Assembly: GCA_045604705.1 (NCBI GenBank) | Contig: JAZUOO010000022.1 | Coordinates: 3,588-67,587, forward strand | Direction of reading: 5' to 3' | Length of the DNA stretch: 64,000 bases | Origin: Eubacteriales bacterium | GTDB lineage: Bacteria > Bacillota > Clostridia > Oscillospirales > CAG-382 | In this document: positions 48,130 to 53,856 of the stretch, piece after piece | Numbering within the stretch: position 1 is the stretch's first letter | Layout of the letters: the number at the start of each line of letters is the position of its first letter | The notes under the pieces: model-generated | The model's database searches: none | Seen by the model: the letters and a program-made list of their open reading frames with translations, nothing else | Told to the model about the DNA's origin: nothing | Program-made: the position numbers and the translations under genes

Positions 48130-48895
48130 GCACCTGCGGAGCGTTGTGCGGTATGTGATTGCTGAGATGTCCTCATGGCACATCTTCGTCGTCACGCCCT
48201 ACATATATGCACACCAAAAAAATTAATCAAAGCGAATTGTGATTATTGCAATTTCCTCGTACCGCAGTGCGATACAATATAATCAAAAGCGAAGCTTTTT
48301 ACCTAAATTATGCATTATGCATTATGCATTGTGCATTGTGCATTGCGCATTGTGCATTGCGAAGCAAAACCCTCATGGCACGACACACAGGTCGTGCCCT
48401 ACATAGGTCGCTGCACCCTCGGATATTTTGTTTAATTTGTAATGTTTGCGATGCCTGCGAAGACCCTCTCCGTCAGCTTCGCTGCCACCTCTCCCAGAGG
48501 GAGAGGCAAGATGTGCACCCACGGAGCGTTGTACGGATTGTGATTGTTGCGATGTTCTCATGGCACGACACACAGGTCGTGCCCTACTTTCAGCCAAAAC
48601 CTCAAATCAGCAGAAACCAAAAATTTTAAACTCAGGGGTGATAGGGGGCGCCAGCCCCCTGGGCAGAACAATCGAGCTGTTCCAACAGAAGAAAGCAACA
48701 AAAAATCTTTGAAGCAACACATTTTAGGGTTCAGAAGAATCCTTCGGATTCTTTAAAGTTTGCTTGCAAACTTCTTAGGGACGAAGTCCCTGAGCGGCGT
48801 TTTTTTGGTTACTTTTTTTCGCTGTAGAAAAAACAGTAACGCCCCGCCGGCAAGGCGAAAGGCAAAGATTAGCAGCCGCTTAAACAAAACGCAGC
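48130..48895. repeat. ~770 bp mosaic repeat (REP hairpins, heptamer array, multiple stem-loops), copy 1
   Basis: Blocks 48130-48400 and 48558-48895 are near-identical to 53270-53532 and 53507-53856. Confidence 0.9.
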
Positions 48896-49140
48896 CAGTA
48901 AGAATTCAAAAGAAACCAAAAAACAATAAATCAGAAATCTGTTGAACAAAACGCAGAAAGTAAAAAATCAGCAGAAACCCCAAAAGCCCCAACCCAGCAG
49001 CCTGTTAAACCAACCGCAAAAAGCCACAAATAAAAAACCAAACGCAACAACATCGCAGTTAATCCCCCTTACCAAACCAAACAAAGAGTTCAGAAAAACC
49101 ATCCCTCATTTATCTCATCCCCCGGAGGTGATCCTAAAAA

Positions 49141-51399
49141 TTGGGCATAATCAACGTCCTTGACAAACACACCGCAAACCTAATCGCCGCAGGCGAAGTA
49201 GTCGAGCGTCCCTCCAGCGCAATAAAGGAGCTTCTGGAAAACAGCGCCGACGCAGGAGCAACACAAATAACCGTTGAAATAAAGAACGGCGGCAGCACAT
49301 ACATAAGAGTCAGCGACAACGGCTGCGGAATCTCTGCAGAGGACGTCCCGGTATGTATCCTGCGCCACGCAACAAGCAAAATAAAAGATAAAAACGACCT
49401 TGCGGCAATATCCACATTGGGATTTCGGGGCGAAGCACTCGCAGCAATATCCGCAGTAACACGCCTTAGAATCATAACAAAACGCAAGGAAGACGATACA
49501 GGCACTTACTTTTCCGCAGACTTCGGCGAAAAGAAAGAAATTTCCGAAACAGGCTGTCCCGTAGGTACTACCATAATTGCAGAAAACCTATTTGAAAATG
49601 TCCCGGCAAGAAGAAAGTTTCTTCGCAGAGACGTATCGGAAACAAAAGCCGTCGGTGCGGCAGTGGAAAAATTCGCACTCTCAAAACCGCACATCGCAGT
49701 GACATTTATTTCCGACGGCGGCGTAAAGCTCAAAACCCCCGGTGACGGAAGCCTCAAAAACTGCATCTACGCAGCACTCGGCAAAGAGTTCACCGACAAT
49801 ATGCTCCCGGTATCCTATACCTTGGGCGATATAGAAGTCACAGGCTTTATCGGAAAGCCACAGTTTGCAAGACCAAACAGGAATCTGCAGAATTTCTTTA
49901 TAAATGAAAGATATATAAAATCAGGCACAATGGCGGCAGGACTCGAGGAGGGCTTCAAAAGCTTCTGCCCCATAGGTAAATTCCCCGCTTGCGTGCTGTT
50001 CCTGAAAATAGATTTCGATAAAGTGGACATCAATATCCACCCCGCAAAGCTTGAAGTCAAATTCACAGGCGAGCGACAGGTGTTTGAAACAGTAATGTAC
50101 GCCGTCAGGAACGCCCTTTCAAGAGGCATGAACTCCTTCGCACCGCCAAGGGCACAAAGATTCATCGACAACCTTGAGCGCAAAGCCCCCGACGTTACCG
50201 TCAACAACTCCGAAACCGGCAAGGACACCTTCGTCGAAGCCTTCGCAAAGCCCTCGGAGATGATAGCGGATAAAGGTGTTATTTCCGTACCCAATCCCGA
50301 AAGTATTGAGAAGATTTACGGCAAAGAAAACACAAACGGCGTAAATTCACTAAACTTCGACTACAGTGTGCCGGAATACGCAAAAGCACCCGAATATCCC
50401 AAAGCACAGGAAAGCATACAGAATAAATCAGAAACGGACAACCCCAAAAAGCAAGCCTTGCCGAACCGGGATATTCAAGCCACCGAAAGTCAAGCATCTC
50501 TCGAATTTATTCGGGTTGACTACAACAGTATCGAGGCTCTAAAGAATTCAAAACCAGCCTCTAAAAGCTCCATGCTTGAACAAAAGATCAACGAGATTCT
50601 GAGCAAAAAGAAACCGAAAACGGAAGAATCCCCCGAACAAGCACAAAAAACCGAAGCAACACCGAAAGAAGAATGCTCAAAGAACTCAGGAGAACAAACA
50701 GAGCAGCCTTACTCTCCCGAAGACATATCCCTGTTCCAAAGTATGCCCCGCAAAGCAACCGATACCCCCGAAGCTCCGTTCAAGGAAATTGCAGACAAGG
50801 ATACGGCAGCAGAACTCATGCAAAGAGTCAGCAGCGGAATAACCGTAATCGGCGAAGCCTTCAACTCATATATCATCGTACAGCGTGACTCTACACTTTA
50901 TATGATAGACAAGCACGCCGCACACGAGCGGATAATATACGAATCCCTCAAAAAAGGCAAAAAAGAGGGCGGCACACAGCTGCTTCTCATCCCCATAACA
51001 GTAAATGTAGCCGCCGAGGAATCAATTGCCATAGCAGAAAACGGAGAGTACCTTGAAAATATCGGCTATGTCTTTGAGGAATTCGGAACAAACACATATC
51101 TTCTCCGAGGTATTCCCGCAGAAATTGACACAAGCAGTGCCGGAGAAACCTTTGTATATCTCGCAGGACAAATAGCCAAAGCCGGAGGTAAAGCAATAGG
51201 CGACATCTTTGACAGAGCTCTCTATACCGCAGCCTGTAAAGCCGCAGTAAAAGCAGGGACAAAAACCTCAAAGCTGTCCTCCACAATGATAGCGGATATA
51301 CTCTTCTCGGATGAAGCTGTGCTGTATTGCCCCCACGGAAGACCGGTAATATTGGAATTTACAAAATCAAAGCTGGATAAAATGTTCTCAAGAACCTAA
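49141..51399 (+). CDS. mutL: DNA mismatch repair endonuclease MutL
   Basis: IAAGEVVERP, DNGCG, HATSK, GFRGEAL, DINIHPAK, DKHAAHE, ACK, CPHGRP; TTG start after GGAGGTG. Confidence 0.97.
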   Translation: MGIINVLDKHTANLIAAGEVVERPSSAIKELLENSADAGATQITVEIKNGGSTYIRVSDNGCGISAEDVPVCILRHATSKIKDKNDLAAISTLGFRGEALAAISAVTRLRIITKRKEDDTGTYFSADFGEKKEISETGCPVGTTIIAENLFENVPARRKFLRRDVSETKAVGAAVEKFALSKPHIAVTFISDGGVKLKTPGDGSLKNCIYAALGKEFTDNMLPVSYTLGDIEVTGFIGKPQFARPNRNLQNFFINERYIKSGTMAAGLEEGFKSFCPIGKFPACVLFLKIDFDKVDINIHPAKLEVKFTGERQVFETVMYAVRNALSRGMNSFAPPRAQRFIDNLERKAPDVTVNNSETGKDTFVEAFAKPSEMIADKGVISVPNPESIEKIYGKENTNGVNSLNFDYSVPEYAKAPEYPKAQESIQNKSETDNPKKQALPNRDIQATESQASLEFIRVDYNSIEALKNSKPASKSSMLEQKINEILSKKKPKTEESPEQAQKTEATPKEECSKNSGEQTEQPYSPEDISLFQSMPRKATDTPEAPFKEIADKDTAAELMQRVSSGITVIGEAFNSYIIVQRDSTLYMIDKHAAHERIIYESLKKGKKEGGTQLLLIPITVNVAAEESIAIAENGEYLENIGYVFEEFGTNTYLLRGIPAEIDTSSAGETFVYLAGQIAKAGGKAIGDIFDRALYTAACKAAVKAGTKTSKLSSTMIADILFSDEAVLYCPHGRPVILEFTKSKLDKMFSRT

Positions 51400-51422
51400 A
51401 ATAAAGTAAAGGAAACCAAAAT

Positions 51423-53043: not shown

Positions 53044-53105
53044 TATACCTGCAGTTATTCTCTTAATTAGTTTTGAGAGTAATTCATACAGAGCCAAACC
53101 AAAAT

Positions 53106-53140
53106 CCGAGGTCAAACAGCAACCGACCTCGGTTCTTTTT
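53106..53140 (+). terminator. rho-independent terminator after yajC
   Basis: CCGAGGTC-loop-GACCTCGG-TTCTTTTT. Confidence 0.75.
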
Positions 53141-53169
53141 ATTGCCCGGAATAAAGAAATGGGTATAGT

Positions 53170-53856
53170 TGTGCCCACGGAGCATTGTGCGGATTGTGAT
53201 TGTTGCGATGCCTGCACCCTCTCCGTCAGCTTCGCTGCCACCTCTCCCAAAGGGCGAGGCATGGTTTGTGCACCTGCGGAGCGTTGTACGGTATGTGATT
53301 GCTGAGATGTCTGCCACGGCGTGCCCAAGATGGTACATCTTCGTCGTCACGCCCTACATATATGCACACCAAAAAAATTAATCAAAGCGAATTGTGATTA
53401 TTGCAATTTCCTCGCACCGCAGTGCGATACAATAAAATCAAAAGCGAAGCTTTTTACCTAAATTATGCATTATGCATTATGCATTGTGCATTGCGAAGCA
53501 AAACCCTCATGGCACGACACACAGGTCGTGCCCCACTTTCAACCAAAACCTCAAATCAGCAGAAACCAAAATTTTAAACTCAGGGGTGATAGGGGGCGCC
53601 AGCCCCCTGGGATGGACAATCGAGCTGTTCCAACAGAAGAAAGCAACAAAAATCTTCGAAGTACATCCCAAAGGGTTCAGAAGAATCCTTCGGATTCTTT
53701 AAAGTTTGCTTGCAAACTTCTTAGGGGCAAAGCCACTAAGCGGTCCTTTTTTGGTTACTTTTTTTGACTGTTGAAAAAAAGTTAGCTCGCTTGCGAGATT
53801 TCTCCCCGTCGGCAAGGCGAAAGGCAGAGATTAGCAGTCTGTCAAACTTAACGCAG
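53170..53856. repeat. ~690 bp mosaic repeat, copy 2 (modules reordered)
   Basis: Shares modules with 48130-48895 and 14482-14526. Confidence 0.9.

Follow-up and report, generated by a model that had tools for sequence, protein, structure and literature searches.

Classical repetitive extragenic palindromic (REP) sequences occur in more than 100 copies per genome, and other modular intergenic repeats, namely the Neisseria intergenic mosaic elements (NIMEs, composed of dRS3 and RS units) and the pneumococcal BOX elements (A-B(n)-C), are known as recombination substrates. Here we describe two blocks of hairpin-rich repeats that enclose mutL, tgt and yajC in a window of 64,000 nucleotides (positions 3588-67587 of contig C22) from the Oscillospirales metagenome-assembled genome (MAG) G000 (1.87 Mb in 68 contigs, 41.7% G+C, 96.5% complete). 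The blocks are probably lineage-specific expansions of ordinary short spacers by genome-wide non-coding hairpin modules, and would represent a clostridial counterpart of the REP mosaics known as bacterial interspersed mosaic elements (BIMEs).

Within BIMEs, according to the accessible account, REPs alternate in orientation (PMC2817692). The survey of GTAG-headed repeats by Di Nocera et al. deals with Proteobacteria, Cyanobacteria, Chloroflexi and the Planctomycetes-Verrucomicrobia-Chlamydiae (PVC) group, and its accessible text contains no mention of Firmicutes or Clostridia (PMC3733652). In the accessible text of Quentin et al., Clostridia appear in the section on taxonomic distribution only for subclass 1.1, within their Class 1 (PMC6006769), and that of Bertels et al. 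places Group 1 REP-associated tyrosine transposases (RAYTs) in Clostridia (PMC5581495). No description of REP/BIME mosaics in Clostridia was found in the literature searched, supplements being outside the scope, and a search on heptamer repeats returned only papers on TAACTGA and on G-quadruplexes. The former repeats, intergenic and direct, were reported by MacGregor (2015) to be abundant in Beggiatoaceae, Cyanobacteria and Bacteroidetes, with Firmicutes absent from the accessible text (PMC4679880). As for the mutS-mutL junction, SpyCI of Streptococcus pyogenes is described, in the accessible text, as a phage-like island of the 13-kb class that excises and reintegrates site-specifically between the two genes (PMC4689407, PMC3430984).

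Two mosaic blocks built from dispersed modules

The mutS-mutL spacer (1,019 bp) and the yajC-DUF3792 spacer (951 bp) have three collinear direct-repeat segments in common, 83-85% identical. By blastn of one spacer against the other, 48557-48936 matches 53506-53899 (82.8% over 400 columns, E 3e-116), 48130-48402 matches 53270-53536 (84.7% over 288, E 3e-97) and 48437-48555 matches 53194-53310 (84.3% over 121; at E 1e-33 the weakest segment), and the longest exact runs common to both spacers measure 80, 58, 55, 53 and 44 nt. A repeat search over 47500-54500 returned the direct families D1 (164 nt, 98%, offset 5155), D5 (108 nt, 90%), D6 (90 nt, 94%), D8 (73 nt, 95%) and D9 (53 nt, 91%), together with a linker, L, in four copies (D2), and found no inverted pair of 20 nt or more. 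Both searches bear out what an earlier reading of the letters alone (the sequence-only reading) had proposed, two mosaic repeats around mutL-tgt-yajC, the first of which sets mutS and mutL about 1 kb apart. The blocks are confirmed as real, at the positions given below, far beyond chance.

The same modules are dispersed throughout the genome. Both blocks, compared by blastn with the whole assembly, gave 219 high-scoring segment pairs, and nine module queries yielded 34 loci, 20 of them composite and showing 19 different orders; module order varies genome-wide, as the cassette model of the sequence-only reading demanded. The building blocks are GTAG-tagged REPs (R1 and R2), a ~100-bp P-L unit that can stand in tandem, a hairpin module followed by an (ATGCATT)n array (H and heptamers) and a multi-hairpin tail of ~0.5 kb. 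Copy numbers in G000 are ~20 for R2, 9 for R1, 23 for P, 15 for H and 3 for the tail, all lower bounds, as 9 of the 136 contig ends stop inside modules. The modules follow one another in a single direction: H precedes heptamers 13 times, heptamers precede R2 and P precedes H 6 times each, R1 precedes H and P precedes L 5 times each, R2 precedes P and H 4 times each and the tail (T1) 3 times, with no reverse adjacency among the scored loci of G000. Both blocks fit one grammar with a variable unit number, (L-P)n-L-R-[H-heptamers-R2]-tail, copy 2 reading L'-P-L-R1-H-heptamers-R2-tail, and copy 1 reading L-R1*-H-heptamers-R2 followed by X(L-like)-P-L-R2-tail. The two copies are therefore register-shifted with different unit numbers; the sequence-only reading was right that their module order differs, but its free shuffling gives way to a directional grammar.

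Copy 1, like copy 2, is described here on the plus strand. It opens with a G/T-rich linker L (48130-48170, core GGAGCGTTGTGCGG; D2, with at least seven L copies genome-wide) and continues with the REP R1* (48171-48202), which ends in CCCTAC (48197-48202) and which, compared with the 9 R1 and ~20 R2 copies, is a chimera of the 5' part of R2 and the 3' part of R1 joined at their common ATGGCAC. Module H follows (48216-48309), with a hairpin at 48257-48272, a GAA-loop hairpin at 48285-48299 and then ACCTAAATT at 48301-48309, and leads into an array of 7.6 ATGCATT-like heptamers delimited by Tandem Repeats Finder (TRF; 48307-48359, C22 51894-51946). REP R2a (48372-48402) reads GGCACGAC-ACACAG-GTCGTGCC and then CTAC, placing its GTAG head on the minus strand. 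Beyond it lie segment X (48403-48462), single-copy with one genomic match and an L-like 3' end (the last 22 nt 86% like the end of L; D7), module P (48463-48510, CCCTCTCC..., hairpin at 48488-48506) and a second linker L (48511-48555; D2 and self-comparison of copy 1). By the same self-comparison, the next REP, R2b (48557-48587), is 100% identical to R2a over 31 nt, and identical R2 copies thus stand on both sides of the X-P-L insert. The multi-hairpin tail with its A/C-rich extension occupies 48588-49075 and includes hairpins T1 (48643-48660), T2 (48735-48753 and 48756-48773) and T3 (48774-48794), a long T/A-rich hairpin and a CGCC hairpin core (48845-48861). We extend copy 1 through the A/C-rich part to ~49075 because the third genomic copy of the tail, on contig C5, has the same part.

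Copy 2 begins with linker L' (53171-53215; D2, 94.6% identical to 48518-48554), module P (53216-53263; D9, 91%) and linker L (53270-53310; D2). Its REP R1 (53311-53357) is full-length, with a GGCGTG...CACGCC outer stem, an AAGATG/CATCTT inner stem and the CCCTAC end, and is followed by module H (53371-53464; D1, 98%), 4.4 heptamers by TRF (53462-53492), a REP R2 with the head variant CCCCAC (53506-53536) and the multi-hairpin tail (53537-53899; 82.8% identical to that of copy 1). The difference in heptamer number between the copies, 7.6 and 4.4 units, had been noted in the sequence-only reading as about 7 versus 4, together with tail stems that vary while keeping most of their pairing; the stem quoted there is a double compensatory change from A-T in copy 1 to G-C in copy 2, and compensatory change is found at 7 of 41 predicted pairs of the tail.

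The order miaB-ylbF-mutS-mutL-tgt-yajC is kept in all six genomes of the genus that were sampled, including the sister species G007 (MutS 96% identical). In three of the six, the gene after yajC encodes DUF3792, with ligT as the next gene in two of these three. The blocks are absent from the spacers of these relatives: their mutS-mutL spacers measure about 39, 48, 55, 75, 129 and 278 bp versus 1,019 bp here, and the yajC-DUF3792 spacers of the three relatives in which a DUF3792 gene was identified, 124-167 bp versus 951 bp. Both blocks are therefore lineage-specific expansions. Single modules are separately multi-copy in relatives, the tail in G007, the 3' half of H with heptamers in G006 and G019 and P in G009 and G010, and 10 of 31 genomes, G000 included, have any module match. 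The amplification of different modules in different relatives is what REP-like families usually show. A metagenome scan with the MutS C-terminus gave best matches of 55-68% identity and no strain of the same species.

The neighbouring genes, assigned by Pfam, encode a MiaB-like radical-SAM enzyme (43254-44660), YlbF (44793-45209), MutS (45455-48121, with its stop at 48121), MutL (49141-51399, with its start at 49141), Tgt (51423-52559), YajC (52642-53043) and a DUF3792 protein (53995-54432); mutL (TTG start), tgt and yajC, all on the plus strand, fill the interval 49141-53043 between the blocks. MutL is intact, with its Pfam match and the endonuclease motifs DKHAAHERIIYE, ACK and CPHGRP. The apparent mutL start is TTG at 49141, where aligned relatives have ATG, and upstream of it stands GGAGGTGA, itself preceded by a degenerate heptamer run (49100-49122). 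Directly 3' of yajC, upstream of copy 2 and outside the repeat, is a terminator-like hairpin with a T-run (53106-53145, plus strand). The four open reading frames (ORFs) within the blocks have no Pfam match and were rejected as genes on that ground, and an Rfam scan of 44000-58000 at permissive thresholds (E<=1), a check suggested in the sequence-only reading, found no RNA family. The stretches 3' of each tail are A/C-rich and G-poor (48890-49100, A105 C58 G25 T23 of 211; 53856-53990, A68 C28 G14 T25 of 135), that of copy 1 with an internal tandem duplication of ~62 nt, and by composition look like Rho-loading sites. Folded in silico as DNA, the entire mutS-mutL spacer gives -141 kcal/mol, a value computed without a shuffle control, which is available only up to 1000 nt, and therefore not used as evidence.

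REP palindromes, their candidate enzymes and the heptamer arrays

In R1 as in R2 the palindrome directly adjoins a terminal CCCTAC, which reads GTAGGG on the opposite strand and gives them the GTAG head of REPs, and the palindromes are short, with an 8-bp stem and 6-nt loop in R2 and a 6-bp outer plus 6-bp inner stem in R1. As in BIMEs, they are clustered with other conserved motifs; BIMEs are characterised in addition by a biochemical property, the binding of IHF, gyrase or Pol I. In G000, 52 sites combine GTAG with a hairpin, 22 of them from the GTAGGG families, and the extragenic GTAGGG palindromes comprise 12 perfect R2 copies (~20 with variants), the 9 of R1 and 10 others, lower bounds for a 68-contig MAG. 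Over all GTAG sites the hairpin rate of 0.0073 is slightly higher than that of control tetramers (0.0035-0.0064), the signal lying in the GTAGGG families alone.

Outside this genome, exact matches to the R2 26-mer stand at 17 loci, spread over 11 other MAG assemblies of Oscillospirales from the gut of ruminants or humans, which are labelled Oscillospiraceae, Acutalibacteraceae, Faecousia, Ruminococcus or Clostridia, and one genome, G001, has at least 20 near-exact R2 copies. At least 7 of 18 matches have an inverted GTAGGG palindrome just upstream of R2, a heads-out dimer as in REP doublets forming hairpins (REPINs). Every one of the five REPs in these blocks lies on the plus strand, and inverted pairs in G000 occur only elsewhere (twice on contig C13, and on C45 and C6). 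Among viral contigs, the 26-mer is present in one, near the end of an IMG/VR contig (L173, 20144-20670), where it may be the host flank of a prophage, and the tail motif is present in none; nothing here indicates a phage origin. In the Acutalibacteraceae MAG G005, the strongest three matches to the modules (84-95%) all fall on contig C64 (L167, L172), which could have been transferred recently or mis-binned.

The other R2-bearing genomes yield weak PF01797 matches corresponding to RAYT-like ORFs of ~165-190 aa, and one such ORF, at L022, contains GTAGGGAACGGCCTGTGTGCCGTTCC, an R2 with compensatory stem changes. The sole Y1 gene of G000, and its single PF01797 match, is the transposase of an IS200 insertion sequence (C12:61732-62088, L018) with its own end hairpins, which scores 153.9 bits with NF033573 and 27.5 with the RAYT model, against a cut-off of 80. 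No other Y1 or RAYT gene was detected in G000, either by tblastn with three Y1/RAYT-like proteins of related genomes or with a profile of six RAYT-like proteins; the same profile matches in 17 of 61 genomes of the family and, among five other genus members searched, only in G006. We rejected the IS200 element as mobiliser, its end hairpins being unrelated to the modules in a by-eye comparison. The REPs of G000 are orphans, which may be relics, may be mobilised in trans or may depend on an enzyme encoded in unassembled DNA.

The RAYT-like Y1 ORFs of other Oscillospirales (L022:1297-1869, L023:1291-1788, L026-L029, L068-L085), recognisable by the signature MDLPNRK..YDYS..MP[DN]HIH..IWQ.S.YDH.IR, themselves carry in-frame GTAGGG palindromes. 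These sit at two constant positions, one following the first strand and the other the HUH motif, and form an inverted pair within the ORF in 5 of 6 cases in one set and 10 of 14 in another, with a REP sequence that differs by paralogue. We found no description of such in-gene palindromes in the literature examined.

The heptamer arrays belong to a genome-wide class of their own. TRF detects 142 period-7 arrays in G000, 125 of them outside ORFs of at least 120 aa; 91 are TGCATT-like, and 61 of the 80 that could be scored obey one polarity, as judged from ORF proxies rather than gene calls. At the left spacer border the array takes its A-rich reading, (TAATGCA)n, which has stop codons in every frame, and at the right border the T-rich one. 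By the same proxies, the median distance to the adjacent ORF is ~20 nt, and a stop codon directly adjoins 42 of these 61 arrays. The end of module H, with its GAA-loop hairpin, ACCTAAATT and heptamer array, is the standard end of this spacer class, in which inverted array pairs are often 170-260 bp apart and fill the spacer from stop codon to ribosome-binding site. Examples in the window are ylbF-mutS (45210-45530) and 56824-57030, and the short mutS-mutL spacers of G006 and G007 are such elements too, with other heptamers.

The third copy of the tail, on contig C5, is 97-98% identical and is set apart from copy 1 by deletions lying between short repeats (AGAAACC). This copy (C5:14790-15900) follows an ORF labelled by eye as MazF/PemK-like and faces the 3' end of a convergent gene; the tail is therefore not tied to a downstream gene. 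A T1+T3 composite of the tail is present in at least eight copies in G007. The three tail copies show no target-site duplication at their borders, and no pair of terminal inverted repeats of 20 nt or more was found in 47500-54500, which sets the blocks apart from miniature inverted-repeat transposable elements and composite transposons; the sequence-only reading had likewise reported no transposase or target duplication, and this holds for the window.

Origin of the blocks and alternative readings

Under expansion by dispersed REP-type modules, the hairpin units would have spread as single-stranded DNA acted on by Y1/HUH enzymes; related genomes, but not the G000 assembly, contain RAYT-like genes that have cognate GTAGGG palindromes. 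The present arrangements would have been produced by recombination or slippage at shared modules, because the R1/R2 chimera at ATGGCAC, the duplication of R2 around X-P-L and the deletions between the AGAAACC repeats of the tail are what such events would leave. The consequence is most likely passive, in that ~1 kb of stable hairpins now keeps mutL apart from mutS. A by-product is the direct repeat, spaced by ~5 kb, that the blocks form around mutL-tgt-yajC. Several points weigh against this account. The copy numbers (~20 R2, 9 R1, 23 P, 3 tails) are low compared with classical REP genomes, and the REPs of both blocks all point one way, unlike those of BIMEs. No RAYT gene was found in an assembly that is 96.5% complete, so that mobilisation in G000 is unproven and the repeats may be relics, and no strain-level data show movement. 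The MAG breaks at repeats, and the order within the blocks could therefore be partly chimeric. Finally, a consensus scan found no plus-strand promoter in the blocks and one weak terminator-like site (48774-48794), with promoter and terminator counts no higher than in shuffled sequences. The BIME-like cassette of the sequence-only reading accordingly survives in its dispersed modules, GTAG-tagged palindromes and junctions at shared short sequences, and falls short in the common orientation of the REPs and the lack of a RAYT gene in the assembly.

Selection of the blocks as regulatory RNA or DNA elements is unlikely, although it would be compatible with their origin by module expansion. On this account they are devices of the 3' or 5' untranslated regions, serving as terminators, mRNA stabilisers, insulators or a new promoter, which uncouple mutL from mutS and set the expression of the DUF3792 gene. 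The many stable hairpins with their compensatory changes at 7 of 41 pairs, the terminator-like hairpin with T7 at 48774-48794 and the fixed polarity of the heptamer arrays close to ORF borders and stop codons are in keeping with such a role, and E. coli REPs are reported as 3' untranslated region regulators in the accessible text of a preprint (bioRxiv 10.64898/2026.03.23.713779). However, the blocks have neither a plus-strand promoter match nor an Rfam family, and the tail of G007 lies in either direction relative to the neighbouring ORFs: at eight loci, scored with crude ORF proxies, it has the same orientation as both neighbours in three, is opposite to both in two and has mixed or single neighbours in three. 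Occurrence in either orientation argues for a DNA-level repeat over a sense-strand RNA element.

More doubtful still is the view of the blocks as local outgrowths of an undescribed clostridial intergenic architecture, in which spacers bounded by polar heptamer arrays and GNA-loop hairpins are filled with GTAG REPs, the cognate RAYT-like enzymes of related genomes having an inverted REP pair of their own in frame within the gene, and which, if active, would continually rebuild gene borders and create at mutL a recombination-prone direct repeat. The layout of heptamer array plus GNA-loop hairpin ('iteron plus hairpin') does resemble, by analogy, the origins used by HUH endonucleases. Were such a system active, the direct repeat at mutL could occasionally yield mismatch-repair-deficient lineages.

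We consider it improbable that a short-read assembler, in passing through dispersed repeats, created chimeric blocks or a chimeric order within them. The MAG is fragmented, with contig ends inside modules, and no whole block is spanned by any public read or contig examined; yet both are internal to a contig of 69.9 kb and are flanked by genes that keep their order in 6 of 6 relatives, and each copy has private substitutions and indels. The public reads covering the region come from two low-share DNA runs of one study, no RNA run being listed, and are represented by Logan contigs that cover 47000-55000 in short pieces; these match 48557-48818 (3 differences), 48826-48982 (0) and 53341-53478 (0). 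Among them are two joints, 48510 to 53174 and 53897 to 48879, each in one contig and with 6 mismatches per piece. We reject both as a deletion or duplication and attribute them to other repeat loci or relatives, because of the mismatches and because one joint is the ordinary P-GTTTGTGCA-L junction of other loci and the other is ~55 nt out of register with the alignment of copies 1 and 2. No deletion joint is thus credited in the search for reads joining ~48600 to 53550 that the sequence-only reading had called for, the reads being uninformative.

The mutator switch that this reading had proposed, taken here to mean that the direct repeats exist to delete or amplify mutL-tgt-yajC as a contingency device, is possible in principle but unsupported, with a negative result so far, and we judge it very improbable. 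The repeats are direct and ~5 kb apart, and their exact runs have a length that could in principle sustain homologous recombination; their placement on both sides of mutL is suggestive, and a mobile element between mutS and mutL is, in the accessible literature, a known mutator switch in S. pyogenes (SpyCIM1; PMC4689407, PMC3430984). But the same modules stand at no fewer than 34 loci beside unrelated genes with nothing that singles out mutL, six genus relatives keep the gene order and lack the repeats, a deletion or amplification joint was seen in no read, contig or relative, the assembly contains no alternative joint and the flanks are single-copy, a deletion would be irreversible and hence no switch, the blocks encode no integrase or excision function (0 Pfam matches) and MutL is intact. 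The placement of the blocks around mutL is most likely incidental.

Comparison with known systems

The finding extends GTAG-REP/BIME-type mosaics to gut Clostridia (Oscillospirales), which are not listed in the accessible text of the surveys examined, and links such mosaics to the polar heptamer arrays found at gene borders throughout the genome. MAG assemblies are interrupted by repeats of this kind, which also place long direct repeats on either side of housekeeping genes, mutL among them, and are a plausible source of structural variation between strains.

The closest counterparts are the REPs and BIMEs of Enterobacteria and Pseudomonas, with which the blocks have in common extragenic GTAG-headed palindromes, mosaics of variable unit number and a species-specific copy number. 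Here, by contrast, the copies number tens and not hundreds, the assembly contains no RAYT gene, the REPs of both blocks are co-oriented, and BIMEs have nothing that corresponds to the heptamer arrays, the P-L unit or the 0.5-kb tail. The host, a Firmicute, lies outside the taxa named in the accessible text of the GTAG survey (PMC3733652). The likeness to REPIN/RAYT systems lies in the heads-out dimers found elsewhere in G000 and in relatives, and in the RAYT-like Y1 proteins with cognate palindromes of related genomes.

The SpyCIM1 island also places foreign DNA between mutS and mutL, where it could affect mutL expression, but the blocks are non-coding repeats of only ~1 kb that encode no integrase and show no sign of excision, and thus differ from a switch in which an integrase excises and reintegrates the element at the 5' end of mutL. 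NIMEs and BOX elements, likened here by general description only, are architectural analogues, built either of longer cassettes separated by a short linker repeat or of modules in variable number; they belong to other hosts, and no trace of phage integration at the linker was seen here. The TAACTGA repeats, as far as their accessible description goes, resemble the heptamer arrays in being numerous intergenic 7-nt arrays near ORF borders, with stops in all frames in one direction and copy number changing in 7-nt steps. The units here are of the ATGCATT, TTTTGCA or GTGAATT types, however, and the arrays form inverted pairs at both spacer borders, each beside a GNA-loop hairpin, and mostly abut stop, not start, codons. 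Set beside all these systems, the blocks are a REP/BIME-like intergenic mosaic, ordinary in kind and new in its taxonomic setting and its architecture.

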